Part shown: positions 21,585-47,447 of the stretch, piece after piece
Layout of the letters: each line of letters begins with the position of its first letter
Numbering within the stretch: position 1 is the stretch's first letter
Assembly (NCBI GenBank): GCA_964650645.1
Contig: CAZYUH010000001.1
Location: 705,202-754,089 of the forward strand
Origin: an uncultured Candidatus Saccharibacteria bacterium
Lineage (GTDB): Bacteria > Patescibacteriota > Minisyncoccia > Phycocordibacterales > SBAW01
DNA: 48,888 bases
Reading direction: 5' to 3'
The notes under the pieces: model-generated
Told to the model about the DNA's origin: nothing
The model's input: the letters and a program-made list of their open reading frames with translations, nothing else
The model's database searches: none
Program-made: the position numbers and the translations under genes

Positions 21585-21626
21585 AGACGATTCAAGAAAT
21601 TTCAGCAAATGACGCTAGGCCGCAAT

Positions 21627-21773
21627 GACGATATTGCAGTCAAGGAAATAGATATACGAAATTACGCTAAGTATTTATTACGAGAAGGAACAGATCTAGA
21701 AAAGCGAGAATTGCTTGGATGTTTGAAAGGTAATATTTTGTTATCTGAAAAAAAGATTCTATTAACAAAATAA
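21627..21773 (+). pseudogene. Probable 3' remnant of a large serine recombinase
   Basis: DDIAVKEIDIRNYAKYLLREGTDLEKRELLGCLKGNILLSEKKILLTK resembles, from recall, C-termini of Patescibacteria recombinase-family proteins. No own start; GC drops here; terminator follows. Confidence 0.5.
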
Positions 21774-21800
21774 AAACCACTCGACTGAGTGGTTTTTATT
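21769..21800. terminator. Bidirectional intrinsic terminator
   Basis: AATAAAAACCACTC-GACT-GAGTGGTTTTTATT, perfect 14-bp stem. Confidence 0.8.
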
Positions 21801-21836
21801 TCATATTCCTATGTTACTTATATCGCGAACTTAATG

Positions 21837-23363
21837 TTAGTAACTCATAAACTCCGTCACTTCACCATCATTACCGATTGCATAGATGATCCATTTCTCT
21901 GTCTTTGGTCCTGGCATTCCTGGAGAACCTGAAGGCATTCCAGGCAAGGCGATACCTTTGATGGCTGGTTTTTCTGCGAGCAACTTTTCTATTACCTCCA
22001 GTGGTATGTGCCCCTCAACTACATAGCCTCCAACTATAGAAGTGTGGCAGCTCTGTAGATTAGTTGGAACGCCGTACTGATCTTTGATAGCAGTAAGGTC
22101 TTCAACGTCTATAGCCTTTACTTTTACATCTTCACGTTCAAGGTACTCCACATAAACGTGACAGCAACCACACGTTTTTGTTTTATATACCGTCATCTCC
22201 TCACCCATAAGGGCAGTCTTCTCTTCGGAAACGCTTTGACCTTTCCAGATGCTTATACCATTCGGCTTACTGCCTACCGATATTTGAGTTATTTCCTTAC
22301 CTGTTTTTGTATCGACTACAGAGACAGTATTTCCTTCGAGGTTTGTGACATATGCCTTGCTATTATCGTCATTAATAACGACTCCGTGAGGGGCTTTCCC
22401 AACAGCAATGCTTTCAGTTATTTCTTTCGTTTTAAGATCCAGTTTGTACAGCTTGTTGTTTGCAGGTCGGTTCTGTAGAACCCCTTGATCTGCAATATAG
22501 ACGTAACGAGAATCTGAAGTCGGATAGAGTTGCACTGGTCCCTCTGAACCCTCTGGCAATGCTACATACGATACTGATTCGAGAGCAGTATCGTACAGAG
22601 CAACGCTGCGAGTCTCATACACAGACGCAGCTACATATTTACCATCAGGAGTAACCGCTGTCTGGACAACCGAACCGTTGAGAATTTTTACTTCTGTCGT
22701 TCCACTTGCGAGATCGACGACACCAAGACCCTTCCCGTCCATAAAGGCAACATAGGCAGTTTTTCCATCAGGAGAGAGTCGCATACCATGGGGACCGCTT
22801 CCTTCGGGTAGACTAATCTCTGTTTGTAGGAAATTGCTCGTATCTACTTTGTAGAGCTTATTTGTCTCCTGCGCCGCGATAAGTGCTATAGATCCGTCTG
22901 GGGTAAACACGACATGCGCCAGATGCTGACCACTTCCAAGCGGTATTCGTTTGACTATGGCGTCCTCTTGAGGGTCAATGACGATAACCTGATCCCCAGT
23001 GTCCATCTTCATTTCCTCATGTCCCTCATCGGCATATGCGGTAGGAATGAAAAGTGAAGTATGTACGTCATGCTCCTCCATTCCAGCATTAGCTGTTACC
23101 CAAACACTTTTTCCGTCGGGGGACGCCTGGACATTGTGCGGAAGATATTTCGTCTCAGTTTCTTGCTCAGTAAGATCAATGACTTTGATTGATTTGTTTG
23201 TGGCAGGGTCAATCACATTCACAGTGCCTTCTTCTTCGACTGCCACATAGATTTTCTCTGTAAGTGCATTTCCTGTTGAGGAAATGGGGTTATTCTTTGC
23301 AAGCAACGTAATGCCTACAAGTGCAAGGATTACAATCCCGCCTAATAGATATGCTTTCTTCAT
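21837..23363 (-). CDS. YVTN/YncE beta-propeller fused to a C-terminal DUF411 (CopG-like) domain
   Basis: Blades PHNVQASPDG, AHVVFTPDG, PHGMRLSPDG, APHGVVIN; C-terminal TCGCC, SCHTSIVGGYVVEGH, GIALPGMPSGSPGM. Confidence 0.85.
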   Translation of the reverse strand: MKKAYLLGGIVILALVGITLLAKNNPISSTGNALTEKIYVAVEEEGTVNVIDPATNKSIKVIDLTEQETETKYLPHNVQASPDGKSVWVTANAGMEEHDVHTSLFIPTAYADEGHEEMKMDTGDQVIVIDPQEDAIVKRIPLGSGQHLAHVVFTPDGSIALIAAQETNKLYKVDTSNFLQTEISLPEGSGPHGMRLSPDGKTAYVAFMDGKGLGVVDLASGTTEVKILNGSVVQTAVTPDGKYVAASVYETRSVALYDTALESVSYVALPEGSEGPVQLYPTSDSRYVYIADQGVLQNRPANNKLYKLDLKTKEITESIAVGKAPHGVVINDDNSKAYVTNLEGNTVSVVDTKTGKEITQISVGSKPNGISIWKGQSVSEEKTALMGEEMTVYKTKTCGCCHVYVEYLEREDVKVKAIDVEDLTAIKDQYGVPTNLQSCHTSIVGGYVVEGHIPLEVIEKLLAEKPAIKGIALPGMPSGSPGMPGPKTEKWIIYAIGNDGEVTEFMSY

Positions 23364-23367
23364 AGGC

Positions 23368-23763
23368 TTAATTGTTGAACCACGTTTGTCGCCATTCTCT
23401 CATCATTTCAATTTCACTTGTCTGTGCGTTAATAATGTCATTTCCAAGTTTTACGAGTTCAGGGCGCTTAGTCTTTTGAAGAAGCATCTCTGCCATATCT
23501 ACAGCTCCTTCGTGGTGAACAATCATCTCGTCAATAAATGCCTTCTCAAATTCTTCTCCTGATTTACCTTCTAAACCTGCTGTCATATTAGTCATTGTGT
23601 TTCCCATTTCGTGTGAGTTACCCATCATATGACTGCTTGTGTCGGTTATACCTGACATCATTGGGTAATCCATTTTTCCTGTTCCTAAGAAATATCCAAG
23701 AACAAGTCCCAGAATGAGGGTAATGATGCCGATAATAAGTAGATGTATATTTTTTGTTTCCAT
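23368..23763 (-). CDS. DUF305 ferritin-like (CopM-like) protein
   Basis: Met/His-rich linker; FIDEMIVHHEGAVDMA...IINAQTSEIEMM. Confidence 0.88.
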   Translation of the reverse strand: METKNIHLLIIGIITLILGLVLGYFLGTGKMDYPMMSGITDTSSHMMGNSHEMGNTMTNMTAGLEGKSGEEFEKAFIDEMIVHHEGAVDMAEMLLQKTKRPELVKLGNDIINAQTSEIEMMREWRQTWFNN

Positions 23764-23803
23764 AATTTTGTTTAATAGTTGCTAATAAAAGAAGTAGGAA
23801 AAA

Positions 23804-24211
23804 TTACGGGGCTTTGGGATGCAAAATACCTTGAGAGAATAGCTCTGTATATAAATCGGGAATATGGAACGTGAACCTGCGAGGTAATTCTTGAGAGTTG
23901 GATATTTTGGGCGGATCCAGTATGTCCTTTTTTATATACGTGTGGAGGGCAAGTCCAAGAGCTATAAGTAAAAGCAAGTAGGAAGCGATGAGTGTTAGAG
24001 GAACACTGAACATGCTTTGCCATACAGAAAGGTACTCAAACGGGTTCATTGCACAAATGACATGCTCTCCAAGCGTTATGGTGCATCCAGCTTGGTGTTC
24101 ACCGTGCGACATTTGAACCGCCGACAAAATGCCAAACCCACCTACCCATACAAATGCCACTAAGAGTATGCCGAGGAGGAGATATTTTGCTTTGTTAGTA
24201 AAAAATGACAT
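23804..24211 (-). CDS. Hypothetical membrane protein in the copper operon
   Basis: Two TM segments, MSHGEHQAGC...HVIC motif, C-terminal ELFSQGILHPK; 2-nt gap to copB. Confidence 0.7.
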   Translation of the reverse strand: MSFFTNKAKYLLLGILLVAFVWVGGFGILSAVQMSHGEHQAGCTITLGEHVICAMNPFEYLSVWQSMFSVPLTLIASYLLLLIALGLALHTYIKKDILDPPKISNSQELPRRFTFHIPDLYTELFSQGILHPKAP

Positions 24212-24213
24212 AC

Positions 24214-26259
24214 TTACATTCTATAATTTTTCAGGAGGGTTGCGTTAATCGCCACGACCACCGTACTTACTGACATCAGTACGGCTCCTACGGCAGGAGA
24301 TAAAACAATTCCGACACCAGCGAGTACTCCCGCTGCCAGTGGCAGGGCAAGAATGTTATAACCGCTTGCCCACCAGAGATTTTGGATCATCTTTCGATAG
24401 GTAGCTTTGGCAAGAGAAAGAATTACAACCACATCTCTTGGGTCGCTTTTTACCAAGACCACATCAGCGCTTTCTATAGCCACATCGGTTCCAGCGCCGA
24501 TAGCGATGCCAACATTGGCCTGTGCAAGAGCTGGTGCGTCATTGACCCCGTCTCCGACCATCGCCACCTTATACCCTTGAGCTTGGATTTCTTTTATTTT
24601 CTCTGTCTTCTCGTGTGGCAATACCTCTGCGTAATAGGTTTTGATACCGAGCTCCTTTGAAACACGTTCTGCAACACGCTTTGCGTCCCCGGTAAGCATA
24701 ATGGGTTCAATTCCCATTGCTTGAAGTTTTTGGACCACCTCCTTTGCTTCATCGCGAACCAAATCATCAAGAGCAATAGCACCTATAGGTAATTCGTTAA
24801 CCAAAACGAACACGACAGTCCGTCCCTCATCAATCAAACGTTCAACATTTTTGTTGTTTACCGTTATGCTCTTTCCATTCAAATACCCTGGACTTACGAC
24901 TTTGATTTGTTTTCCTTCTACAGTGCCCATTGCACCTTTACCTGGTATTGAGGAGAAGTTATTTACAGCAAGCTTTTTGCTTACCCGTTCTGCTATAGCT
25001 TTGGCTATCGGATGTTCGGAGTGTGCCTCTATTGCGGCAGCATAGGCAAGGATTCGATCCTCCTGTTCATTTCCCAAGGGCACAACTTCGGTTATACCGA
25101 ACTTTCCTTTAGTAAGAGTGCCTGTCTTATCAAAGACAACAGCTGTTATATTCCGTGCTTCTTCAAAAGCGGTTCTGTTGCGTATAAGCAAGCCTTTGCG
25201 AGCAGAAAGAGCTGTTGAAACCGAAACCACAAGCGGTATAGCAAGACCGAGTGCGTGAGGACAAGCTATGACAATAACAGCAATGGTTCGCTGAAGGGCA
25301 TACGCGAGATTTTCTGACGTAAAAAATGTCCAACCAAAGAATGTAAGTATCCCTGCGCCTATCGCAACAAACGTTAGCCACATCGCTGCACGATCAGCGA
25401 GTTTCTGGGTCTTTGACTTTTCTGCCTGTGCTGATGACACAAGCTCTATAATTTGCGAAAGATATGTGTCTTTTCCTACTTTCTGTATCTCTACTACGAT
25501 TGAGCCATCACTGTTTACAGAGCCTCCAATAACGGATTGTCCAGCAAACTTTTCTATGAGCTTGGTTTCTCCTGTAAGCATTGCTTCATTTACAGAAGTT
25601 CTTCCTTCAACAACAATGCCGTCAACTGGAATCTTCTCACCAGGCTTTACAAGAACTCTATCTCCGAGGGACAGATCGGCAACCTGAACATCTTCTGTCT
25701 CTCCGTCTTTTCCTAGCCGATGTGCTGTTGAAGGCATTAGCTTTGCTAGCTCTTCCAAAGCCCGAGATGCACCCATGACCGACCGCATTTCGATCCAGTG
25801 CCCAAGAAGCATAATGTCCACGAGCGTTACCAGCTCCCACAAAAGCTCCTCGCCGGGCAGGCCCGCAAACACAGCAATGCTATATCCATAAGCGGCAGAA
25901 ATAGCCAAGGCGACGAGCGTCATCATCCCCGGCTGTCTTGCTTTTACTTCATCATATAAACCTTTGAGAAAAGGATAGCCCCCATAAAAGAAAATGATTG
26001 AGGCGAGAATAAACCGAACATATACATCTCCTGAAAAGCCGATACCCTCTATACCAAAAAACATCTGGACCATCGGCGAGAGAACAAGTACAGGAATGGA
26101 GAGAATTAGAGAAATCCAAAACTTCTTTCTGAAATCCTCAACCATATGGGCGTGATGACCTTGATGGTTGTCGTGTGAATGTTTCTCTTGGTGGCTACTG
26201 TCCGTATCAGAGCAAGAGTGATCAGCAGGAGAATGTTTGTGATGAGAAGTATCGTGCAT
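24214..26259 (-). CDS. copB: Copper-translocating P1B-type ATPase, His-rich N-terminus (CopB-like)
   Basis: His-rich N-tail, CPH, DKTGTLT, TGE-type actuator motif (MLTGE), GDGVNDAPAL, YNILA, MSVSTVVVAINA. Confidence 0.92.
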   Translation of the reverse strand: MHDTSHHKHSPADHSCSDTDSSHQEKHSHDNHQGHHAHMVEDFRKKFWISLILSIPVLVLSPMVQMFFGIEGIGFSGDVYVRFILASIIFFYGGYPFLKGLYDEVKARQPGMMTLVALAISAAYGYSIAVFAGLPGEELLWELVTLVDIMLLGHWIEMRSVMGASRALEELAKLMPSTAHRLGKDGETEDVQVADLSLGDRVLVKPGEKIPVDGIVVEGRTSVNEAMLTGETKLIEKFAGQSVIGGSVNSDGSIVVEIQKVGKDTYLSQIIELVSSAQAEKSKTQKLADRAAMWLTFVAIGAGILTFFGWTFFTSENLAYALQRTIAVIVIACPHALGLAIPLVVSVSTALSARKGLLIRNRTAFEEARNITAVVFDKTGTLTKGKFGITEVVPLGNEQEDRILAYAAAIEAHSEHPIAKAIAERVSKKLAVNNFSSIPGKGAMGTVEGKQIKVVSPGYLNGKSITVNNKNVERLIDEGRTVVFVLVNELPIGAIALDDLVRDEAKEVVQKLQAMGIEPIMLTGDAKRVAERVSKELGIKTYYAEVLPHEKTEKIKEIQAQGYKVAMVGDGVNDAPALAQANVGIAIGAGTDVAIESADVVLVKSDPRDVVVILSLAKATYRKMIQNLWWASGYNILALPLAAGVLAGVGIVLSPAVGAVLMSVSTVVVAINATLLKNYRM

Positions 26260-26263
26260 ATAG

Positions 26264-26533
26264 TTATTTGCTTTGGGCTAACTTATATACCTTAAGAATT
26301 TCATTGATTGCTTTCCCTTCTTCTTTGCCTCGCATTTGATGCACAACATGCGTAGATAAGTGATGTTCCAGCATCACATTTTCTACGCTTCCCAATGCCT
26401 TTTTGATGGCATTGGATTGAGTGATGATATCTACACAATATTTCTCGCTTTCCACCATTTGCTGTAAACCACGCACCTGACCCTCGATGCGGCGCAGACG
26501 ATTTTGCAACTGCTTTTTTATGTCTTGCTTCAT
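26264..26533 (-). CDS. csoR: CsoR/RcnR family metal-sensing repressor
   Basis: RLRRIEGQVRGLQQMV, YCVDIITQ, MLEHHLSTHV; a CsoR-type operator sits directly upstream. Confidence 0.88.
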   Translation of the reverse strand: MKQDIKKQLQNRLRRIEGQVRGLQQMVESEKYCVDIITQSNAIKKALGSVENVMLEHHLSTHVVHQMRGKEEGKAINEILKVYKLAQSK

Positions 26534-26539
26534 ATCTTA

Positions 26540-26567
26540 AGTATACCCCTGTGGGGTATACGGTCAA
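26540..26567 (-). promoter_or_regulatory. Sigma70-type promoter overlapped by a CsoR-type operator
   Basis: Perfect palindrome GTATACCCC-TGT-GGGGTATAC (26541-26561); minus strand TTGACC-N16-TATACT-N6-ATG. Confidence 0.85.
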
Positions 26568-26728
26568 GCTCAGTTTCGTTAGTTGATACTGTACCTTATT
26601 CATTCTCCTCCACAGGAACGTGTAAAAGCAAAAAGCGCCCAAACCAGGCACTTTTTACCTATAAAAACCTTCCTTAGTTAATATAAGGCTATCGACGCGT
26701 CTCGTGCGCGATAACCTATCACGAGTTG

Positions 26729-26743
26729 GCTGGGAGACATGGA
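26729..26743. repeat. att core, distal copy of the tRNA-Gln 3' end
   Basis: Identical to 31418-31432; on the minus strand it continues ...TCTCCCAG-CCA. Confidence 0.85.
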
Positions 26744-26880
26744 ACCTCACTGCTCGCTTCGCTGCGCTTACGAAACCCTCGGTTTCGTAGACTTCCGACA
26801 CGGGGAACTCCCATTCCCCGACCCCCTCCCGGTTCAAATCCATGCCGCGGGCAACCCCGTTGCCCGCTTCTCCCAGCTTC
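26744..26880 (-). other. tRNA-linked palindromic module with a split antisense copy of the tRNA-Gln 3' end
   Basis: GCTGGGAGA-A-[GCGGGCAAC GGG GTTGCCCGC]-GG-CATGGATTTGAACC, followed by further hairpins (GGGGAA/TTCCCC, TACGAAACC/GGTTTCGTA). Confidence 0.7.
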
Positions 26881-26924
26881 AGCGCTTCGTATTCTAGCTG
26901 GGTGTATGGGACGATGTTGGAACC

Positions 26925-27431
26925 TTACTTTGTGCTTAAGCCCATTACCCGAGAGTAGTATGGCAAAATCTCTTGGGCTAGAGGCGCAAGATTTACTTTA
27001 TCAGCAGATTCAGCAAAAAGTTGGAATATAGGCCACAACTCTTGGGTTAGAGTTTTTACATCCCAAACTTTACTTTTTGGAGTACCGCTTTGTCTTGAAG
27101 TGGTAAGATGACCAACTTCCTTATCAGCCCGGGTCTTTGCCTCTGTCAAAACTTCACTTAATTGCGGCCTTACTTTATCCCAGGAGTCTTCCTTGTTAAA
27201 GAAGTCTTTCGCACATACGTCAGTGTCTCTAGAAGAGGCTGGATATAGGAAAGTAATCAGATTCCGCAAGTGTATTGCGTAAGATTCAACAGGCATATGT
27301 TGCAATCCGTTAGGAACTTTAAGCCCACGAATTATTGCATCAGTACCATTGAGTAACATTTGAACCTCATACCGTACATGTTCAGAAAAGTACTCGACAA
27401 GTTGTTTTTCCGTTAGGTCTTTTGTTTTCAT
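26925..27431 (-). CDS. Hypothetical protein, HEPN-like
   Basis: ESYAIHLRNLITFL and RADKEVGH (R-x6-H); all-helical appearance. Confidence 0.6.
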   Translation of the reverse strand: MKTKDLTEKQLVEYFSEHVRYEVQMLLNGTDAIIRGLKVPNGLQHMPVESYAIHLRNLITFLYPASSRDTDVCAKDFFNKEDSWDKVRPQLSEVLTEAKTRADKEVGHLTTSRQSGTPKSKVWDVKTLTQELWPIFQLFAESADKVNLAPLAQEILPYYSRVMGLSTK

Positions 27432-27781
27432 TGCTGAAGCGTAAAATTAAGACATCCGCAACCAGATTTGCATGGTATTTCCTTATTAAAGACAGGGATA
27501 CTTTGTCCTGGTTCAATCTTAGAAAATCCTTCTTTGTGCATAAACTTGGAGTGACCACACTGGCATTGTTGTTTCAAGGACTCTAAGTATTCATCTTGCA
27601 CAGATACATCTATCTCAACTATCTTTTCATTGTTCTCGCACACTTCGTTTACACATTGAAACTTTCTTTTACCGTCAAACTTTTGAGAAGGCTCTCCTTC
27701 AAGTTTTCGCATAGCAAAAGGGCCAATTTCTCTCATTACCTCATGGCAAACTTCGCAGGGCATTTCTTTCATAAATTTCAA
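27428..27781 (-). CDS. Double zinc-finger-like small protein
   Basis: CEVC...CVNEVC and CQCGH...H...CKSGCGC; ATGA-coupled to the next gene. Confidence 0.7.
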   Translation of the reverse strand: MKFMKEMPCEVCHEVMREIGPFAMRKLEGEPSQKFDGKRKFQCVNEVCENNEKIVEIDVSVQDEYLESLKQQCQCGHSKFMHKEGFSKIEPGQSIPVFNKEIPCKSGCGCLNFTLQQ

Positions 27782-27786
27782 TAACT

Positions 27787-29019
27787 TTAGGTTAACTTTT
27801 CGAATTTACTCGAGAGACTCTTTAGGTTATCTAGCAACTCGTCAAATGTAATAAACTCTATATTCTTGAACGACCTACGCAACAATCTAAAGTCTCTCTT
27901 TTTGTTATCGTTACTCTCCCACTCTTGAGTCTTCCCTATTATTAAAAAGGCTTTTGGCTTGAGAACTGAGAATGGAACCTTAGTTTGCTTTTGTAGGTAC
28001 TTTTCGAATCCCTCAACATTTTTTTCAAGAAAGAGAATGTATTTTTCAATCTGAGAAATTGCCTGCGAAGAGCTTCTTGAAAGGAAATAGTTATCATGAC
28101 TGGTGTCTATCCTTCTCGCAAAAATTTCAGTGAATGGTGTCTTTATTTCAAACACATCCAGGAATCCATATAAATCTATCCAGACAAAATCTGGTTTTTT
28201 AGCACCTTCTTCCGTTTTGGCGAAATTAACATCTGCTTCCCTTATCGACTCAATGTAATTTGAGTTAAAGAAGAAGACTTCCTCATGCAGAAACTTTTGC
28301 CACTGTTTTTCCGAGAAGTTTCTGTTTTTGATATGTCTTTCAAACTTCTTTATCACTTGGTCAAGAGTCTTCTTTCTTCCCTCAATGACAAGGTTCTCCT
28401 GCAAATACTCCAGAACTTGGTCATTTTCTGAGTTTATAGAGATGTATCTTTTAATAAAACCAGCGACAGCCTCATGATCGTCTTTATCAAGAGTGTTTAG
28501 GTTAATCTCAGTTAATTTCTTATTTGCACTTTCGTCACTTGATGCACTCTTGAATTCGTTAGGCAAAAAACGAGCAAGACGCTCTTGCACAACAGAATCT
28601 CTTCCTTTTTTTACCTCAGTTCCAAGGTCTTCAAGTAACTCTCTAAAATCTTTAAAAGAGAGACTGAGCGAAACATACTTAGGCTGATTCTTAAAGTAAG
28701 TCGAGCCATGACCACTCATAAATACACTTAGTCTGGTTTCTTTACCAAACTTATTTTTAAGGAAATCCAAAACGTGACTTCCACCAACTTTATTGACCTG
28801 TCTCTGATTAAAACCTCCTCCTGTCTTGTATAAAAATAGTCCTACCGGCTGCTGAGAAAATCCTTTAAAAGTTATTGTCTTTATACTAAACCTTTTAGCT
28901 ACAGACGGTTTGAAGTAGTAAATGAAGTTATCGTCTTGTTTTTTCCAGCCAGCAAGAATCCTCTTAGCCCTCTTTTTGGCTTTCTTTTTTGAGGACTTCT
29001 TTTTCTTCTTGGCTACCAT
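27787..29019 (-). CDS. sduA: Shedu (SduA, DUF4263) anti-phage nuclease
   Basis: EKQWQKFL, KPDFV, VFEIKTP, SQAISQIEKY, KPKAFLIIG, FRLLRRSFKNIEFITFDELL; TATACT 6 nt upstream. Confidence 0.9.
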   Translation of the reverse strand: MVAKKKKKSSKKKAKKRAKRILAGWKKQDDNFIYYFKPSVAKRFSIKTITFKGFSQQPVGLFLYKTGGGFNQRQVNKVGGSHVLDFLKNKFGKETRLSVFMSGHGSTYFKNQPKYVSLSLSFKDFRELLEDLGTEVKKGRDSVVQERLARFLPNEFKSASSDESANKKLTEINLNTLDKDDHEAVAGFIKRYISINSENDQVLEYLQENLVIEGRKKTLDQVIKKFERHIKNRNFSEKQWQKFLHEEVFFFNSNYIESIREADVNFAKTEEGAKKPDFVWIDLYGFLDVFEIKTPFTEIFARRIDTSHDNYFLSRSSSQAISQIEKYILFLEKNVEGFEKYLQKQTKVPFSVLKPKAFLIIGKTQEWESNDNKKRDFRLLRRSFKNIEFITFDELLDNLKSLSSKFEKLT

Positions 29020-29135
29020 GCGGGTAGTATACTCTTGTTCCTGAAAACTTCATCCGCCGGCGCGGGCGGCCATCCGAGGCGCCCTGCGGAGCTTCGTGCC
29101 GCGCCTAGCGGCATGAAGGGGCGGGGCTGCCCGCG

Positions 29136-29357
29136 CTAGCTAAAGGGTCCTTTGCGGATAAGAGTCTCTGCTTCTTTTTCTGCTCCTGGCTTCCGTGTAT
29201 TTTCTTCTATCTTCTCAAGCAAATTTACTATTCGATTTTGTTTCCAGTACCAAGTAAATATCTCTCGAACTAACAAAAAACCAATGAGCCAAAGAAATAG
29301 AATCGGCCAGTTATCAAAGAAGCTAATGATTTGTCGCGGCAATTCTAGGCTGTCCAT
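29136..29357 (-). CDS. Small single-pass membrane protein
   Basis: TM helix then REIFTWYWKQNRIVNLLEKIEEN. Confidence 0.65.
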   Translation of the reverse strand: MDSLELPRQIISFFDNWPILFLWLIGFLLVREIFTWYWKQNRIVNLLEKIEENTRKPGAEKEAETLIRKGPFS

Positions 29358-29389
29358 ATCTTAAAAAGTTACAGATAAAGCCGTGGACG

Positions 29390-29530
29390 CAAAAAGCCCG
29401 CCACGGGTAGAGACCGAAGTCTCTCGTACCAGTTTCCCGATACGGCAGGTAATGCAACCCCATGACGGGTTCTTTATGCATTACCTGACTTGTCGACCTT
29501 ACCTGGGGTTGCCAGGGTTAGGCCCTTTTT
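29390..29530 (-). promoter_or_regulatory. Putative structured RNA leader / attenuator
   Basis: GAAA-loop hairpin (29425-29444), UUCG hairpin (29409-29424), closing stem CCTGCC/GGCGGG plus T-tract, and an 11-bp stem (29446-29456/29477-29487) that overlaps the closing stem. Promoter TTGAAA-N18-TATAGT at 29547-29576. Confidence 0.5.
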
Positions 29531-29719
29531 ATTCAGTTGTGGCCCCACTATACCATCAGTTTTGCCAACATTTCAAAAAGCGTTTCCGAATACAAAAAGT
29601 GCTTGCCGGGGCGGTTTATGAGCGTAAAATTGTTAGTAAGTTCTGGAATAAAAGTCCCGTAAACACGCCTCCTTCGAGGGCAGAGGCAGAACCCACATTA
29701 AAAGCTCGTCTTTTCTTTT

Positions 29720-29932
29720 GTGGTTTATTCTGCCCCTCTAATACAAGAGACTATTTTCGTCTTTCAAGAAGAAAACGGCATACTTCTCACACCCGAGGAG
29801 GCTGTTATTGTTTTGGATGGCCTTTCTGGGTTGTTTTTGGCATATGCAGACCGAGCTGAGGCGACTCCACCCGCTTTAGCGGTGGAGTCGCACTCTATAG
29901 ACTTGATACTCCACACACTTAATGCTACTTAA
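29720..29932 (+). CDS. Small protein directly upstream of the recombinase
   Basis: GTG start; LIQETIFVFQEENGILLTPEEAVIVLDGLSGLFLAY; TTGCCG-N16-TAAAAT promoter at 29603-29630. Confidence 0.55.
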   Translation: MVYSAPLIQETIFVFQEENGILLTPEEAVIVLDGLSGLFLAYADRAEATPPALAVESHSIDLILHTLNAT

Positions 29933-29969
29933 ATTTATTTACTTTTAATTTCAGTGTATTTTAGAGCTT

Positions 29970-31478
29970 ATGAAATACTTCATTTACTGCCGCAAAAGCA
30001 CTGACACGGAGGACCGGCAGGTATTGTCCCTGGACTCGCAGGAAAACGAGCTTAAACGGCTCGCAGAGGCCCAAGGGCTCAAGGTTGCGGGGGTACTTCG
30101 GGAGTCTATGTCGGCTAAGGCTATAGGCCGTCCTGTCTTTACCCAGCTCCTCAAAGCTCTATCCTCTGGTAAAGCCGATGGAATTCTCTGTTGGAAGCTA
30201 GACCGTCTCGCCCGCAACATGGTGGATGGCGGCCAAGTCATGGATTTGCTCCAAAGGGGTGTAATCAAAGAAATTCGCACTTACGAATCAACCCACCTCT
30301 CCTCCGACAATGTCCTCATGCTCGCCGTCCACTTCGGCATGGCAAATCAGTACATCCGCGACCTGAGCATAAATGTTAAGCGTGGACTTAGAGCAAAACT
30401 AGAGCGTGGCGACTGGCCCAACAAACCCCCTCTTGGATATTTCAACGACAAAAACACAAAGCAAATAGTTATAGACCCCATTTCCAGCAGATATGTCGTG
30501 CGCGCATTTGAACTCTACGCAACAGGGAGCTATGGCATAGAAGACTTGGCAGACAAACTGTACGCCGAAGGACTACGGAGCAACCGAGGAGCAAAGATTC
30601 ACAAGTCCACTCTACACAAAGTTCTTCTTCGCTCGTTCTACACAGGGGTCATGGAGCGCGACAATCGCTTTTACAAAGGCAACCATGCTCCCCTCATTTC
30701 AAAGCAACTTTACGATAAGGCCCAAACCGTACTCTCGGGCAATGCACATCCCAAGCCCCAGCGTTTGTTCTTCCCTCTCAGAGGATTCCTGAAATGCGCT
30801 TCCTGTGGCTGTGCGCTTACTGCCTCTCTCAAGAAAGGCCATCAGTATTACTATTGCACCAATGGCAAGGGTAAATGCGACCAGCACAAGAGCTACCTGC
30901 GCGAGAACACCATAAACGCTATGGTGGCTGATTTGTTCGACTCCCTGCACTTCTCTGAGCGCAAGATTGAACTTATGTATAAAGCCGCTAAGGAAAGGTC
31001 AGAGCAGGAGGGCGGCCAAGAAAGACAGAACCTAAACCGCCTCCAGAACCTCTTAAACGCCCTCTCAGAGAAAGAAAGTCGCCTGTTAGATACTTTCGTA
31101 GCCGGTCAGATTCCTAAAGAGCTTTACGACCGCAAGGCGGGCGAAATACAGCATGAACGTCTAGACCTTACCCGCCAGATTCGGGAGGCTGAAAGTAAGG
31201 GAGATGTTTCTACTTTGGAACCGACTAAGCAAGTCTTTTTACAAGCCAGTAAAGCCAAAAAAGAGTTTTTGGATGGCGATGATACTAAAAAGCGCACTAT
31301 CGTAGAAAATCTACTTTGGAACCTTTCTATCGAAAACAAATCCGTGGCTCAAACACAATATAAAAGCCCATTTCACTTACTAGCAAATATCCCTAAAAAC
31401 GCCTCACTTTCAACAATGCTGGGAGACATGGATTCGAACCATGATTCACGCCTCCAAAGGGCGCTGTCCTACCATTAG
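29970..31478 (+). CDS. Large serine recombinase (resolvase + recombinase + Zn-ribbon + coiled coil)
   Basis: YCRKST (catalytic Ser), WKLDRLARN, PPLGY, CASCG...YYYC...C. The last ~20 codons are antisense to tRNA-Gln. Confidence 0.95.
   Translation: MKYFIYCRKSTDTEDRQVLSLDSQENELKRLAEAQGLKVAGVLRESMSAKAIGRPVFTQLLKALSSGKADGILCWKLDRLARNMVDGGQVMDLLQRGVIKEIRTYESTHLSSDNVLMLAVHFGMANQYIRDLSINVKRGLRAKLERGDWPNKPPLGYFNDKNTKQIVIDPISSRYVVRAFELYATGSYGIEDLADKLYAEGLRSNRGAKIHKSTLHKVLLRSFYTGVMERDNRFYKGNHAPLISKQLYDKAQTVLSGNAHPKPQRLFFPLRGFLKCASCGCALTASLKKGHQYYYCTNGKGKCDQHKSYLRENTINAMVADLFDSLHFSERKIELMYKAAKERSEQEGGQERQNLNRLQNLLNALSEKESRLLDTFVAGQIPKELYDRKAGEIQHERLDLTRQIREAESKGDVSTLEPTKQVFLQASKAKKEFLDGDDTKKRTIVENLLWNLSIENKSVAQTQYKSPFHLLANIPKNASLSTMLGDMDSNHDSRLQRALSYH
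31418..31432. repeat. att core, tRNA-proximal copy
   Basis: GCTGGGAGACATGGA inside the tRNA-Gln 3' half and the recombinase 3' end. Confidence 0.85.
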
Positions 31479-31489
31479 ACGATCTCCCA
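31419..31489 (-). tRNA. tRNA-Gln (TTG)
   Basis: TGGGAGA/TCTCCCA acceptor, GCGCC-CT-TTG-GA-GGCGT anticodon arm, GGTTCGAATCC T-arm; CCA not encoded. Confidence 0.95.
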
Positions 31490-31537
31490 ATACGGTGAGG
31501 ATAGCAGGAAAACGGCCTTTTTGCATGGCAAGAGAAA

Positions 31538-43034: not shown

Positions 43035-44102
43035 TTATATAGAAAAGCTCCCCGGGTCGAAGGTGTTCTCGTCGCGCTCGCGCTCCTCGCGCGTGCGGTC
43101 GTCAAGCTCGGGGACGAGCTGCTCGGGCGCGGCGGGCGCGAGCAGGAGCACGGGAGCGCCTACAATGGGCGCCGCCTGCCCTGCGGCAGGCGCCGCGGAT
43201 GAGGGCGCTTCGCCCGCGCCGTTCTGCACCGGCGCGCTTTCTTGCGCGGGCGCGGCGCCCGCCTTCCCGTGCGCGAACCGGCTCGCCAGGCTCGCGAATA
43301 TCACGCGCAAGTCCTCCTCGCCCATGAAGTCGATAACGAGCTTGCCGCCGTTCTCCTTCGTCTCAATGGCCACGCGCGTGCCCAGCGCCTCGCCCAGCTC
43401 TTTCTCCATGTCCAAAATCTCGGGCGAGTACAAGTACTCCTTCTTGCGCACGCGGTCGGTGGCGATGCGCCGCGCAATGGCCTCCGTGTCGCGCACCGTG
43501 AGCCGCTTGAGCATCACCTCCCGAAAGAGCGTGTTCTGCTCCTGCGGCCGGTCGTTGAGCATGAGGAGCGGACGGGTGTGGCCCTCGTTTATGCGGCCCT
43601 CGGTAAGCGCGTCGAGCATCTCCTGCGGAAGCGCGAGCAGGCGGATGGAGTTGGAGACGTACTCGCGGCTCTTGCCCACCTTCTCGGCCACCTCGACATG
43701 CTTGAAGCCAAACTCCGAGACGAGCTGCTGGAACGCCTTGGCGCGGTCCACCGGGTTGAGGTCCTCGCGCTGGAGGTTCTCGACTATAGCGAGCTCGAGC
43801 TTGGTCTTGTCGTCATCCTCGGCCTCGCGGATGAGCGCGGGGACCGTGGCGACGCCCGCCAGCTTGCTGGCGCGCAGGCGGCGCTCCCCCGCCACCAGCT
43901 CGTACTCGGTCGCCAGCCCGCCGTCAGGCTTCTGCACCTCGCGGCGCGTCACGGTAAGCGGCTGGATGACGCCGTACTGGCGTATCGAGCGCGCCAGGTC
44001 GTTCAATTTCGCCTCGTCGAACTCGCGCCTAGGCTGGAACGGGTTAGGCTTTATCTTGTCGACCTCGACCCAGAAGATGGCGTTATTGTAAAACTGCGAC
44101 AT
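43035..44102 (-). CDS. parB: ParB/Spo0J chromosome partitioning protein
   Basis: NPFQPRREF, GVIQPL, AGERRLRA, ENLQREDLNP; TGC-TAGAAT 7 nt upstream. Confidence 0.93.
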   Translation of the reverse strand: MSQFYNNAIFWVEVDKIKPNPFQPRREFDEAKLNDLARSIRQYGVIQPLTVTRREVQKPDGGLATEYELVAGERRLRASKLAGVATVPALIREAEDDDKTKLELAIVENLQREDLNPVDRAKAFQQLVSEFGFKHVEVAEKVGKSREYVSNSIRLLALPQEMLDALTEGRINEGHTRPLLMLNDRPQEQNTLFREVMLKRLTVRDTEAIARRIATDRVRKKEYLYSPEILDMEKELGEALGTRVAIETKENGGKLVIDFMGEEDLRVIFASLASRFAHGKAGAAPAQESAPVQNGAGEAPSSAAPAAGQAAPIVGAPVLLLAPAAPEQLVPELDDRTREERERDENTFDPGSFSI

Positions 44103-44148
44103 TGGCGATATTCTAGCACGCATAGCCCCTTTGTTGGAAACGGGCGAT

Positions 44149-44229
44149 GCCGGAGTGGCGTAATGGTAGCCGCGCTCGACTCAAAATCGAGTCCCGCAAG
44201 GGGTGTGGGTTCAAGTCCCACCTCCGGCA
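44149..44229 (+). tRNA. tRNA-Leu (CAA)
   Basis: GCCGGAG/CTCCGGC acceptor, CTCGA-CT-CAA-AA-TCGAG, long variable arm, GGTTCAAGTCC; CCA not encoded. Confidence 0.95.
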
Positions 44230-44466
44230 CAGAGGGTAGCGATGTGCCGGAGAAGGCCATGCCGGTGCATGGCCTGCGGGAGGCTTGAAGGGCGGAGCGA
44301 TGTTTTGCACTTGCAAAACCGCGAGCCGGGGATGAAAGGCAAACTGCTTTGCCTTTCATCCGGTGCCGAAGGCAAGCGCCGATGCCGCCTTGCGGCAGGC
44401 GCTAGGTGGACGCGGCGCTTGGCTGGCGAGCAGGGCCGACTTGTGGTCAAGTCCCACCTCCGGCAC
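44211..44466 (+). mobile_element. 236-bp non-coding mini-element duplicating the tRNA-Leu 3' end
   Basis: TCAAGTCCCACCTCCGGCAC at 44211-44230 and 44447-44466 flanks a hairpin-rich insert. Confidence 0.7.
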
Positions 44467-44548
44467 TAAGCGAAAAGCAAAGAAGAAGGCGATTTCCATA
44501 ATCCGTGGTAATCTGCGCTCAGACGCAACCGGTTTGAAAGGGCTACAG

Positions 44549-45268
44549 ATGACCAAGCTCGTATTCGCATGCGACGTGAGCGACCTCTCCCTCGGGGAGA
44601 TGCTCATACGCAAGACCGCCGGGCATATCGATATAGTGAAGATAGGCCTCGAAGCCATGACTGCCGAGGACGGCGACGGGACGACCCTCGCGTCCAAGCT
44701 GCGCCGCTATGCCATCGGCAGGCAGCACCCCGTCATGTGGGACATGAAGCTCCACGATATAGAAAGCACGATGGCCAAGGCGGCGCGCAACATCGCAAAG
44801 CTCGGCTCGGATTTCCTTACCATCCACGCCGCAGCATGCGACAAGGCGCTCGCTGCCGTCGCTGCGGCCGCGGATGGGGTCGGGGGCGGCGCCATGCCGC
44901 TTGCCGTCACCGTACTGACCGATCTCGATGAGAGCCAGTGCTACTCGCGCTTCCACGCGACGCCCGATACCGCGGTCAGGCATTTCGCGAAGAACGCGCA
45001 CCGCCTGGGCATCCGCGGCTTCGTCTGCTCGGCCAGGGAGGCCCGCATCATCCGCGACTCCCTGCCCGATGCCTACATCATGACGCCCGGAATCCGCCCC
45101 CTGTGGGCGGTCGCCCGCGACGAGCAGAAGCGCGTCACAACGCCTGCGCAGGCGAAACAGGCCGGCGCCGACGCGATAGTGGTAGGCCGGCCGATATCGA
45201 AGCCGCCACCCTTCCACACCGAAGCCTCGGCGGCGCAAGCGATAAAGGAAGAGCTCGAGGCGGCGTAG
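44549..45268 (+). CDS. pyrF: Orotidine-5'-phosphate decarboxylase
   Basis: VFACD, VKIG, WDMKLHDIEST (DxKxxDI), LTIHA, AVTVLT, MTPGIR, IVVGRPI. Confidence 0.93.
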   Translation: MTKLVFACDVSDLSLGEMLIRKTAGHIDIVKIGLEAMTAEDGDGTTLASKLRRYAIGRQHPVMWDMKLHDIESTMAKAARNIAKLGSDFLTIHAAACDKALAAVAAAADGVGGGAMPLAVTVLTDLDESQCYSRFHATPDTAVRHFAKNAHRLGIRGFVCSAREARIIRDSLPDAYIMTPGIRPLWAVARDEQKRVTTPAQAKQAGADAIVVGRPISKPPPFHTEASAAQAIKEELEAA

Positions 45269-45287
45269 CCGCGAGCATTCAGAAAAC

Positions 45288-45315
45288 AAGGCCCGGCGGA
45301 GTACCGCCGGGCCTT
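45288..45315. terminator. Bidirectional hairpin between pyrF and pyrE
   Basis: AAGGCCCGGCGG-AGTA-CCGCCGGGCCTT, 12-bp stem. Confidence 0.7.
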
Positions 45316-45319
45316 TATC

Positions 45320-46006
45320 TTATCCGCCCGCCCTTTGGGGCAGCTCCCACCCTTCTTTTGACCACGATTCGTCCCGCGGATCCTTGAGCCAGCGCCGCAC
45401 GATGCGCTCGACCCCCTCGTCGAGCATGCCGTTTTGCGCGGCATAGTCCACTATCATCTCGCCGGTGCACAGCGCGTGCACGGAGTGGCCGACGATGTTC
45501 GCGTGGAACTCCGGCAGGCCCCAGGTATTGAGGATGAGCGTGTGCGCGACGCGCGCGCCCGCCGCCTCGAGCGTTTTCATGGCGGCCAGCGCGCTCTCGA
45601 AGGTAGAGGACATGTCCTCTACCAAGAGCACGCGCATGCCGTCGAGCAAGGCGGCGTCCCCGTCTATGAGGCCCCCGAGCCCGTGCCCCGTCTTCTCCTC
45701 CTTCTTTACCGTAAAGTGGGGCATTCCCATCTCGCGCGCCAGCGCGACCCCGTGCGGCACGCCGCCCGATGCGACCGACGCGACGGCGCCGTAGTCGTGC
45801 ACGAGGTCTTCCGTTTGGAACAGGAGCAGCTCTATGATCGCGCCCCATTCATCGGGATGCGACGGAAGCACGCGGTTGTTAATGTACGCGCCCGGCGACA
45901 GCACGCCCTGCTTGAAGCGTATAGCCTTGGGCGGCCTGATGCGCACCGCGCCCGCCTTGAAGAAGTACTCTGCGCTTGATAATTCTCCGAACACCGATAA
46001 GGGCAT
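45320..46006 (-). CDS. pyrE: Orotate phosphoribosyltransferase
   Basis: FKQGVLSPGAYINNR, VASVASGGVPHG, VKKEEKTGHG, PRPP loop LLVEDMSSTFES; GGGAG SD. Confidence 0.8.
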   Translation of the reverse strand: MPLSVFGELSSAEYFFKAGAVRIRPPKAIRFKQGVLSPGAYINNRVLPSHPDEWGAIIELLLFQTEDLVHDYGAVASVASGGVPHGVALAREMGMPHFTVKKEEKTGHGLGGLIDGDAALLDGMRVLLVEDMSSTFESALAAMKTLEAAGARVAHTLILNTWGLPEFHANIVGHSVHALCTGEMIVDYAAQNGMLDEGVERIVRRWLKDPRDESWSKEGWELPQRAGG

Positions 46007-46084
46007 CAAATATCTCCCTGTTTGCCCGACAGACTCACACGAAACTACCTTTATTTTTACTCGAAAGCAAGCTACAACTGAGGC

Positions 46085-46972
46085 GTGCAGAAGCCGAAAC
46101 TCATCGCCATTGTGGGCCCCACCGCCTCGGGCAAGACCGCCCTTGGCATTTATCTCGCCCAGGCACTCGGGGGCGAGGTCATTTCGTGCGACTCGCGGCA
46201 GGTATACAAGGGGCTCGACATAGGCACCGGCAAGGTTACGAAAAAAGAGGCAGCTGGCATTCCCCACCACCTCATAGACGTCGCCTCGCCCAAGCGGCAG
46301 TTCACGGTAGACGAGTTCGTCCGCCTCGCCGAAAAAGCCTATGCTAGTATTTTGCAAAAAAACAAAATAGCTATCGTCGTCGGAGGCACCGGGCTGTACG
46401 CCGACATGCTCCTGGGCCGCATGAGCTACCCCAGCGTGCCGCCCAACGAAACCCTTCGCGCGCGGCTTGCCAAGAAGGCGCCCGCAGAGCTGTTCGCGAT
46501 GCTCCAAAAGGCCGACCCCGCGCGCGCGAAAACGATAGACCCGCGCAACCCGCGCCGCCTGGTGCGCGCGCTCGAAATCGCAGACGCCCTGGGCGCCTCC
46601 CCCGCCCCGGCCCCCGCTCCCGCATACGACGTGCTCTGGCTGGGCATCAACCCGGGGAAAGAAGCGCTCGAAGCGAACATCGGCGCGCGGCTAAAAAGCC
46701 GCATGAAGGCCGGCATGCTCGCCGAGGCCAGGCGCCTGCACGGGCGGGGGCTTTCCTACAAGCGCATGGAGGAGCTGGGGCTCGAATACCGCTACCTGGC
46801 GCGGCTTTTACAGGGAAAGCTCGCGCGCGAGACGTTCATGACGGAGCTTGAGCGCGCCATACGCGGCTACGCCAAGCGCCAGCTCACCTGGTTCAAGCGC
46901 AATAAAGACATCCATTGGGTCCGCTCGGACGCACAGGCCCTGCGCCTGGCAAAAGCCTTCCTTTCGCGCTAG
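46085..46972 (+). CDS. miaA: tRNA dimethylallyltransferase
   Basis: GPTASGKT, SCDSRQVYKGLDIGTGK, PHHLID, VGGTGLY, YAKRQLTWF. Confidence 0.96.
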   Translation: MQKPKLIAIVGPTASGKTALGIYLAQALGGEVISCDSRQVYKGLDIGTGKVTKKEAAGIPHHLIDVASPKRQFTVDEFVRLAEKAYASILQKNKIAIVVGGTGLYADMLLGRMSYPSVPPNETLRARLAKKAPAELFAMLQKADPARAKTIDPRNPRRLVRALEIADALGASPAPAPAPAYDVLWLGINPGKEALEANIGARLKSRMKAGMLAEARRLHGRGLSYKRMEELGLEYRYLARLLQGKLARETFMTELERAIRGYAKRQLTWFKRNKDIHWVRSDAQALRLAKAFLSR

Positions 46973-46984
46973 TATTCTGTCATC

Positions 46985-47055
46985 GGGCGATTAGTTTAAT
47001 GGTAGAACAGCGGTCTCCAAAACCGCTAGCGAGGGTTCGATTCCTTCATCGCCCG
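46985..47055 (+). tRNA. tRNA-Trp (CCA)
   Basis: GGGCGAT/ATCGCCC acceptor, GCGGT-CT-CCA-AA-ACCGC, GGTTCGATTCC; CCA not encoded. Confidence 0.95.
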
Positions 47056-47255
47056 CATAAGACGCAACAACCTCCCCTGCGGGAGGTTTTGCGCTTATGC
47101 GGGAGGCAGAGCGATGTTTTGCACTTGCAAAACCGCGAGCCGGGATCGCGAAAGCTTTTTGCGACGGCAAAAAGCTATTCGTGATCGCAATAGGCATCCC
47201 GCGTATGCGAATTTCCAGCAGGAAATTATGCGTGGCCGATTCCGCCCCTCATGTC
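47052..47255 (+). repeat. tRNA-linked palindromic module sharing a 36-bp core with the tRNA-Leu element
   Basis: GAGCGATGTTTTGCACTTGCAAAACCGCGAGCCGGG is identical at 47109-47144 and 44295-44330; nested hairpins. Confidence 0.8.
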
Positions 47256-47262
47256 ACATACG

Positions 47263-47290
47263 AAAAAACCGCCCTGATGGGCGGTTTTTT
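47263..47290. terminator. Bidirectional intrinsic terminator
   Basis: AAAAAACCGCCC-TGAT-GGGCGGTTTTTT. Confidence 0.85.
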
Positions 47291-47291
47291 A

Positions 47292-47447
47292 TTATTTCTT
47301 GCTCTCCTTGAAAATGACGTGCTTGCGGAGCTTCTTGGAGTACTTTTTAAGCTCTATCTTGCGCGTAACGAGCTTCTTGTTCTTGCTCGTCCAATACACC
47401 TCCCCCGTGGCGGCGTGCTTGAGCTGTATGAGGCGTTCCTGCGACAT
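47292..47447 (-). CDS. rpmG: 50S ribosomal protein L33 (Cys-free form)
   Basis: Hand translation: MSQERLIQLKHAATGEVYWTSKNKKLVTRKIELKKYSKKLRKHVIFKESKK. Missing from the ORF track. Confidence 0.93.
   Translation of the reverse strand: MSQERLIQLKHAATGEVYWTSKNKKLVTRKIELKKYSKKLRKHVIFKESKK

Follow-up and report, generated by a model that had tools for sequence, protein, structure and literature searches.

Genomic islands are known to integrate in transfer RNA (tRNA) and transfer-messenger RNA (tmRNA) genes (Islander, PMC4383910), and integron attC sites as well as attC arrays that have no integrase have been described (PMC2727003, PMC5027507). REP and REPIN sequences are short gene-less repeats that are thought to be mobilised by RAYT transposases of the Y1 HUH type (PMC3116915, PMC3337134), and HDV-like theta ribozymes are found beside phage tRNAs (PMC10879173). 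Here, we analyse a stretch of 48,888 nucleotides (the window, taken as a whole; contig CAZYUH010000001.1, positions 705,202 to 754,089) from an uncultured Candidatus Saccharibacteria bacterium, in which a folded non-coding module, designated M, lies behind tRNA-Trp(cca) and, with an insert, behind tRNA-Leu(caa). By Rfam and literature searches, M matches no described RNA or mobile-element family. We consider there to be about an even chance that M forms the conserved centre of gene-less insertion units, a family located behind tRNA and tmRNA genes in Patescibacteria. The features of the two sites are listed below in window coordinates.

46985-47056, + strand: tRNA-Trp(cca) (ARAGORN; Rfam RF00005, 69.3 bits at 46985-47055)
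47052-47103, + strand: clamp hairpin (sequence; minimum free energy fold)
47104-47186, + strand: complete module M (R1, a covariance model; 97.4 bits over model positions 1-83, E 2e-18)
47109-47144, + strand: domain D1 of M, the 36-mer GAGCGATGTTTTGCACTTGCAAAACCGCGAGCCGGG (exact sequence match; covariation)
47145-47186, + strand: domain D2 of M, a long hairpin (alignment and covariation)
47187-47194, + strand: degenerate direct copy GCAATAGG, compared with GCATAAG (47055-47061) at the tRNA end and trailer start
47204-47243, + strand: 3' half of a second, truncated module (pairwise alignment A4)
47263-47290, + strand: first strong intrinsic-terminator-like hairpin after tRNA-Trp (12-bp stem with T6, and A6 on the other side)
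44149-44230, + strand: tRNA-Leu(caa), anchor of the sister element (ARAGORN; Rfam)
44231-44466, + strand: sister unit, of the long-repeat class defined below (sequence; R1 match at 44290-44361, 53.6 bits; fold)

The tRNA-Trp(cca) gene has no encoded CCA, and the clamp hairpin takes in its last five bases (47052-47056) at the outer end. The outer stem of this hairpin pairs CCCGCATAAG (47052-47061, tRNA end and trailer) with an antisense segment, CTTATGCGGG (47094-47103), and the inner stem joins AACCTCCC (47069-47076) to GGGAGGTT (47081-47088) over a CTGC loop. Only four T follow it (TTTTGCG), and a terminator scan for a GC-rich stem with at least five T does not call it. Module M begins 48 nt past the tRNA end, is among the best-scoring copies and consists, in order, of the core AGGCAGAGC, domain D1, the junction GAGCCGGG and domain D2. 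In D1, GTTTTGC (47116-47122) pairs with GCAAAAC (47127-47133) around an ACTT loop, and next to this stem lie a GCG/CGC helix, an AT bulge and the GAG junction. The base stem of D2 (ATCGCG/CGTGAT) includes a conserved G-U pair, and its upper stem joins AGCTTTTTGC (47153-47162) to GCAAAAAGCT (47167-47176) across a GACG loop (47163-47166). A sequence-only reading of the window had picked out the inverted repeats of the outer and inner clamp stems and of the upper D2 stem, and all three are located where it placed them; the minimum free energy RNA fold of 46985-47300 contains precisely these helices, with a z of -9.0 against 100 shuffles.

The truncated second module comprises a D2-like hairpin (GCGAATTTCC-AGC-AGGAAATTATGCG) and TGGCC, with a T-loop-like CGATTCC (47237-47243) behind it, and this stretch is almost identical to the unit behind tRNA-Ile(tat). 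The tRNA-Trp site is one complete unit of the short class defined below plus the 3' half of a second unit. The sequence-only reading had called the element eroded or differently derived; eroded holds for what comes after the module (the second unit's 3' half and the degenerate copy of the tRNA end) but not for the module itself, which is complete. The whole flank up to the terminator, about 235 nt, is non-coding and has no integrase gene within it, and there is no spacer of open reading frame size in the units at tRNA-Trp, tRNA-Leu and most other sites.

The unit layout was derived by reading all 45 tRNA trailers of the source genome (775 kb, 62% GC, four contigs, 99% complete), where it recurs despite widely differing sequences, and 19 of the units were aligned (alignment A1) to build the covariance model R1. 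Along the tRNA strand, a unit consists of the tRNA 3' end, a hairpin, the antisense segment, the core RGCCGSAGC, D1, the junction GAG-NC-GGG and D2; the antisense segment prolongs the hairpin stem into the last bases of the tRNA, and this extended stem is the clamp. Module M proper spans about 83 nt in two hairpin domains, of which D1 has a lower helix of 3 bp and an AU bulge, and D2 is long, in many copies closed by a GACG loop, with G-U in its base. RNAalifold applied to A1 yields 24 pairs, 16 with compensatory changes, and an invariant G-U. A larger alignment (A2; 58 R1 matches from 51 sources, 53 distinct sequences), which was fitted to the model and leans towards structure, has standard pairs in 91.9% of its cells as against 31-50% with the partners slid, and compensatory change at 25 of 27 pairs; one pair, added by hand, never forms. 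None of 500 shuffles reached these values. Among the 53 distinct copies, compensatory changes are seen at all seven pairs of the D1 main stem and at all 14 pairs of the two D2 helices, and a D2 base pair is G-U in 47. As a conserved G-U becomes an A-C mismatch on the other strand, it is the tRNA-sense strand that folds, whether as RNA or as single-stranded DNA. The conserved property of M is the fold of the tRNA-sense strand and not its sequence.

Searching the source genome with R1 gave 42 matches at E<=1, of which 39 lie at most 312 nt downstream, on the same strand, of 25 tRNA genes and the tmRNA gene, though strand-positions within 600 nt downstream of such genes make up only 1.6% of the genome. 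The genome-wide family of tRNA-trailer repeats surmised in the sequence-only reading thus exists, and the tRNA-Trp element, with its 97.4 bits, belongs to it. The module occurs behind about half of the tRNA genes, and those that carry units have no encoded CCA. One of the three exceptions lies behind an intron-split tRNA missed by ARAGORN, and the other two (source genome contig C1, about 416.7-417.0 kb) lie behind a self-complementary, hairpin-shaped sequence of about 75 nt that is neither a tRNA nor an Rfam family. Since the antisense segment there again matches the 3' end of this sequence, it may be an unannotated stable RNA. The split tRNA itself (contig C1, about 553.6-554.0 kb, - strand) contains a group I intron (RF00028, 56.9 bits), its 3' end matches the tRNA-Asn(gtt) of congeners, and a long-repeat-class unit stands behind it.

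Units also occur in tandem and as truncated copies, and at several sites a repeat composed of a hairpin arm, the antisense segment and AGCCGGAGC is found at the far end. Some pairs of modules within the genome are nearly identical (identity up to 0.98). Unit orientation follows the tRNA strand on both replichore senses, as judged from GC skew, which suggests that the target or its transcription, rather than the direction of replication, sets the orientation.

The 36-mer that had drawn attention to the two sites occurs without mismatch on the + strand at 44295-44330 and at 47109-47144, and no match was found in any of 100 dinucleotide-preserving shuffles, even at up to three mismatches. It starts 65 nt past the end of tRNA-Leu and 53 nt past that of tRNA-Trp, as the description "shortly downstream" had it. 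Genome-wide there are nine copies at up to three mismatches, and all nine lie 50-185 nt downstream of a tRNA on the same strand; the sequence is neither scattered away from tRNAs nor restricted to the two sites, the two outcomes that had been named as fatal to a tRNA-linked family. The 36-mer corresponds exactly to D1 plus the junction, which explains how it can be common to the Leu and Trp units when their D2 and flanks differ. Units at different tRNAs swap parts and are mosaics, of which the shared 36-mer is an example. In the tRNA-Leu unit, an antisense segment GTGCCGGAG (44244-44252), an extra hairpin (44255-44274) and an antisense T-loop piece (44276-44289) precede M, an insert of about 95 nt separates D1 from D2, and the terminus (44447-44466) is an exact 20-nt copy of the tRNA 3' end (44211-44230). 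The insert, a hairpin block (44331-44425), occurs nearly identically between D1 and D2 in three units of the source genome, the others being the tRNA-Pro(ggg) unit and the second tRNA-Ala(tgc) unit, and also at tRNA-Arg(tcg) in the congener G025; it looks like an element inside an element.

Two classes of site can be distinguished by where M starts relative to the tRNA end. In the short class, M starts at most 52 nt past the tRNA (38 sites examined, including tRNA-Trp) and most of the hairpin sequence belongs to the unit itself. In a test of the longest run, antisense matches into the tRNA proper have a median of 5 in this class, equal to the 5 of non-cognate tRNAs, and direct repeats a median of 4 against 4; the non-cognate 95th percentile is exceeded at 8 of the 38 sites for antisense and at 3 for direct repeats. 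In the long-repeat class, M starts at least 59 nt past the tRNA (23 sites, including tRNA-Leu(caa)), the antisense run to the cognate tRNA has a median of 11 versus 5 for non-cognate tRNAs, and the direct copy of the part from the T-loop to the 3' end a median of 13 versus 5. On each of the two measures, 16 of the 23 sites lie above the non-cognate 95th percentile. The direct copies, 13-20 nt long, come after M, so that antisense and direct copy enclose M in an outer helix which tracks the identity of the tRNA; this helix is 86% paired as compared to 25-56% with the partners slid, and six of its eight pairs have changed on both sides. The earlier statement that tRNA-Trp has no att duplication is nearly right, in that a degenerate GCAATAGG follows the module and CGATTCC stands behind the truncated second one, and direct copies like GCAATAGG are not above chance for short-class sites. 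The trailer of tRNA-Gln(ctg) in G025 has the same frame, with an antisense T-loop piece, an inner structure and a direct copy of the tRNA 3' part, around a different inner module. M may, on this account, be one among several interchangeable cores.

Among 100 relatives, searched with stricter filters under which weak matches are lost, R1 finds matches in 83, namely 52 of 60 congeners and 31 of 40 genomes from other families of the order. Copy numbers under the same filters range from 0 to 25 among the 60 congeners, compared with 37 in the source genome. The same layout recurs in five other families, and at 26 of 29 loci in other genomes M is preceded on its strand by a tRNA or tmRNA. In the congener G013, which has no R1 match, the convergent neighbouring gene has its stop 4 nt past tRNA-Trp, and 37 distinct tRNA trailers are without hairpin, antisense segment, core and M, with the exception of an antisense-like piece behind tRNA-Ser(gct). 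The tRNA-Trp of G006 has other filler and no M, and that of G025 carries a unit whose end, GCCGCAG, repeats the tRNA end. A comparison of the source genome with G025 revealed that tRNA-Ile(gat) and tRNA-Glu(ttc) are filled only in the former and tRNA-Gly(ccc) only in the latter. Close relatives differ in whether a given tRNA carries the unit, which is extra, dispensable DNA. Mean module identity at the same tRNA across genomes is 0.758 (n=17), as compared to 0.728 at other tRNAs (n=357). The absence of a same-tRNA excess in similarity, together with the identity of up to 0.98 within a genome, indicates that parts move or convert between sites faster than species diverge.

The module also extends beyond the order. 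A scan of one-genome-per-species contigs with a 17-base motif matched at least 120 stretches, and R1 confirmed 44 of the 80 loci listed, all of which were searched with it. Among the matches listed, the titles of confirmed records include Paceibacterota, Adlerbacteria, Kaiserbacteria, Nomurabacteria, Taylorbacteria, Niyogibacteria and Saccharibacteria, among others. The loci that R1 did not confirm, nearly half of those listed and including every high-GC motif match outside Patescibacteria, were set aside as chance. Of 20 confirmed loci checked, 17 follow a tRNA or tmRNA of the same orientation, mostly with M beginning 46-100 nt past it; the M of a first unit starts 44-100 nt past the tRNA or tmRNA end. 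In viral contigs the motif matched five loci, of which one has M, as a tandem array at the contig end with no recombinase in view.

Four public sequencing runs were examined as contigs (Logan). These contigs break at the 36-mer and its neighbourhood (44322-44332 and 47103-47138), and the M family thus explains assembly breaks behind tRNA genes. In run X1, the contig that bears the tRNA-Ile(tat) unit joins the tRNA-Trp site, with a loose end at 47210; a further X1 contig skips 44200-44331, and as its shorter side has 30 letters no conclusion was drawn from it. In a related strain in run X12, 17 different bases replace 47194-47259 (one contig, depth 7.2). Run X1, labelled as RNA, has flat depth and breaks at the repeat and is therefore uninformative on transcription or RNA ends.

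How does M compare with the described systems? It resembles attC sites in that structure is kept over sequence, one strand folds, a short core bounds the units and tandem arrays are formed. Unlike an integron, the locus has no IntI-type integrase nearby (there is one chromosomal Xer-like gene; the extra domain of IntI was not specifically tested for), most M units have no gene and bound no cassettes, and an antisense-clamped tRNA end serves as anchor instead of attI, with two hairpins in place of one imperfect palindrome. Like REP and REPIN sequences, M is a short, gene-less, hairpin-forming, multi-copy extragenic repeat with nearly identical copies within the genome and a presumed trans-acting enzyme, and a RAYT-like gene exists in the source genome. 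However, M is tied to tRNA 3' ends, co-oriented with them and folded into two domains over 83 nt whereas REP is an inverted doublet, and the RAYT-like gene is not flanked by M, nor did its presence track that of M in a weak test among related genomes. With the islands catalogued by Islander, M shares the 3' part of tRNA and tmRNA genes as target and the stacking of units in tandem and, in the long-repeat class, a regenerated gene with a displaced fragment of 13-20 nt at the far end. It differs from them in that its units are 150-320 bp long, have no integrase and usually no cargo, and contain a covarying fold as well as the tRNA end copied in antisense; no significant displaced fragment is seen in the short class, to which tRNA-Trp belongs, unlike at tRNA-Leu with its exact 20 nt.

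The phage CTX has a folded single-stranded attP that is integrated by the host XerCD. A single strand exchange through a stem that two inverted arms form would leave target, loop, inverted arm, element and target, which is the order seen in M units; in contrast to CTX, the stems of M units copy the end of each tRNA and not a dif site, and the elements are tiny and gene-less. Theta ribozymes resemble M as structured RNA-like elements in the 3' flank of a tRNA, but have no sequence or structure match to M and another topology, and a hairpin separates M from the tRNA. Rfam finds only the tRNAs at both sites, the element being unmatched at gathering thresholds across the whole window and at E<=10 in 44100-47400, and our literature search, which did not extend to supplements, found no description of such tRNA-trailer elements. 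Hammerhead, HDV-like and box C/D (K-turn) layouts, compared by eye through their consensus folds, do not fit the covariation-supported fold; the GAUG and GUGA/CUGA letters of M lie inside supported helices. A small open reading frame from the ATG in the 36-mer was likewise rejected, its frame varying between copies (11 codons at Leu) and the ATG being ATA or CTG in other families.

The sequence-only reading had offered two roles for the element, in tRNA 3' processing or as a mark of integration, and the presence or absence of units between close relatives favours insertion and recombination, with an RNA role remaining as the other. We favour, at chances we put near even, the view that M units are a non-autonomous, structure-dependent insertion or recombination module that targets tRNA 3' ends. 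It rests on the tRNA linkage, the dispensability of the units, the lack of an orthology signal, the covarying fold, the cognate antisense and direct copies of the long-repeat class, and the tandem units. Recombination would insert or exchange units at these ends, with the fold of M as its cis-acting site. A trans-acting enzyme would work on single-stranded or extruded DNA, in the manner of integron attC sites, REPINs and the CTX attP. Exchange of one strand at a folded stem, as in CTX, would give the observed order of tRNA end, hairpin, antisense segment, M and tRNA end.

Several results weigh against this proposal, among them that no enzyme linked to M was found among those examined (serine recombinase, RAYT-like and RVT_1). 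The recombination genes of the source genome comprise one Xer-like tyrosine recombinase (250 kb) and one integrase domain on contig C2, both distant from M units, together with one large serine recombinase (window 29970-31478, + strand) and one RAYT-like Y1 gene. A reverse transcriptase was rejected as mobiliser because no RVT_1 was found in the 99% complete genome. The serine recombinase was rejected since its homologues do not track M in copy number (rho 0.00 over the 60 congeners) and M is absent at 27 of 29 homologue loci, only two holding it within about 1.5 kb. The RAYT-like gene fares no better (rho 0.10 in the same genomes); a homologue is present in 32 of 52 genomes with M and in 2 of 8 without, a weak test as the genomes are related, and all co-occurrence tests are descriptive only, the genomes being kin. 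Homologues of both genes are absent from the M-rich G025 (21 copies). The RAYT-like gene (contig C1, 448172-448888) is flanked by a palindrome of its own, unlike M, that has four copies genome-wide, and no R1 match lies near it in the source genome. Further, neither an excised circle nor a clean empty-site junction was seen in the public runs, as contigs, and the tRNA-Trp unit shows no clear target duplication by the longest-run test, since the repeats of short-class sites do not exceed their non-cognate controls. Finally, an RNA role agrees equally well with the conserved G-U pair, with units and tRNAs being strictly co-oriented on either replichore sense and with the position of the first strong terminator beyond the unit.

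Some observations on these genes stand apart from M. The 21-nt palindrome GAGCAAGGTTSAACCTTGCTC brackets the RAYT-like gene (contig C1, 448153-448944), where three of its four genomic copies lie, and gene and palindrome are a REP/RAYT-type layout unrelated to M. Contig C2 (13.5 kb, 57% GC), which may be an extrachromosomal or mis-binned element, has a partial Phage_integrase match at 8650-9123 (- strand) in an open frame of 1058 aa. No large serine recombinase gene is found at tRNA-Trp or tRNA-Leu; the only one in the window abuts tRNA-Gln(ttg) (31418-31489, - strand), which adjoins a low-GC island (21600-31500, 37-52% versus about 62%). Its domains are Resolvase, Recombinase and Zn_ribbon_recom, and the last 60 or so bases of its reading frame are antisense to the tRNA. 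The island has no tRNA-end direct repeat and no M, and contains a LOOT RNA (RF03000, 73.7 bits, 29409-29524, - strand) just upstream of the recombinase gene. At 25 of 30 loci in relatives, a homologue of this recombinase abuts, in convergent orientation, a tRNA or tmRNA, and serine-recombinase elements do, therefore, dock at tRNAs in this lineage.

Alternatively, M could be a cis-acting RNA in the 3' trailer of the pre-tRNA, transcribed together with the tRNA, the clamp and M guiding or timing 3' processing, termination or quality control and the units having spread and become homogenised by gene conversion, not transposition; we regard this as possible but on the unlikely side. In its favour, the tRNA-Trp primary transcript probably includes the unit. 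In addition to the fold being specific to the tRNA-sense strand and the orientation being kept whatever the direction of replication, the clamp hairpin, with its four T, is not terminator-like, the antisense segment has the 3' end of its own tRNA as pairing partner and the tRNAs that bear units have no encoded CCA. On the other hand, the unit is dispensable, being absent in 8 of the 60 congeners and at single tRNAs elsewhere, tandem and truncated copies exist, the clamp competes with the acceptor stem in the minimum free energy fold and would hinder tRNA folding, and no Rfam family matches.

A more far-reaching version of the insertion proposal, which we rate as doubtful, is that the units form a recombinase-less, structure-guided capture platform specific to stable-RNA genes, integron-like and phylum-wide, with the antisense segment as built-in guide and M as scaffold for a host enzyme. 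The antisense segment would then pair with the tRNA 3' end in single-stranded DNA or RNA, and the target would be chosen by base pairing.

It is improbable, in our judgement, that the units are inert scars, that is, decayed ends or att regions of larger tRNA-integrating islands of the serine- or tyrosine-recombinase type whose genes were deleted. The long-repeat class does carry direct repeats of the tRNA 3' part, as tRNA-gene islands do (Islander, PMC4383910), and the docking of serine-recombinase elements at tRNA genes in 25 of 30 loci agrees with such an origin. Yet scars would not keep a covarying fold across the order and beyond, only 2 of 29 recombinase loci have M nearby, copy numbers are uncorrelated with the serine recombinase, and the window's own recombinase island has neither M nor a tRNA-end repeat. 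That M is a self-cleaving ribozyme trimming the tRNA trailer, like the HDV-like theta ribozymes beside phage tRNAs, is very improbable: tRNA-linked ribozymes exist (PMC10879173) and M is a conserved compact fold in a tRNA trailer, but no Rfam ribozyme family matches 44100-47400 even at E<=10, the fold that covariation supports consists of two independent hairpins set in a three-way frame, with no nested pseudoknot and no hammerhead core when set against those consensus folds, and M starts 44-100 nt from the tRNA end and not at it.

A very small Patescibacteria genome gives dozens of sites, found at over half of its tRNA-type genes, to one folded non-coding module, and this module recurs across many lineages of the phylum. 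On either the insertion or the RNA reading, the covariance model lets annotators mask or label M sites. If M is a mobile element or recombination site, it marks docking points of DNA gain and loss, would serve as a tool for finding accessory islands and is a candidate for an insertion system addressed by structure or by pairing. If it acts as RNA, M would be a widespread new player in tRNA maturation. And if the units do amount to a capture platform, insertion would be addressed by base pairing, and an integron-like system would operate on tRNA ends throughout the whole phylum.
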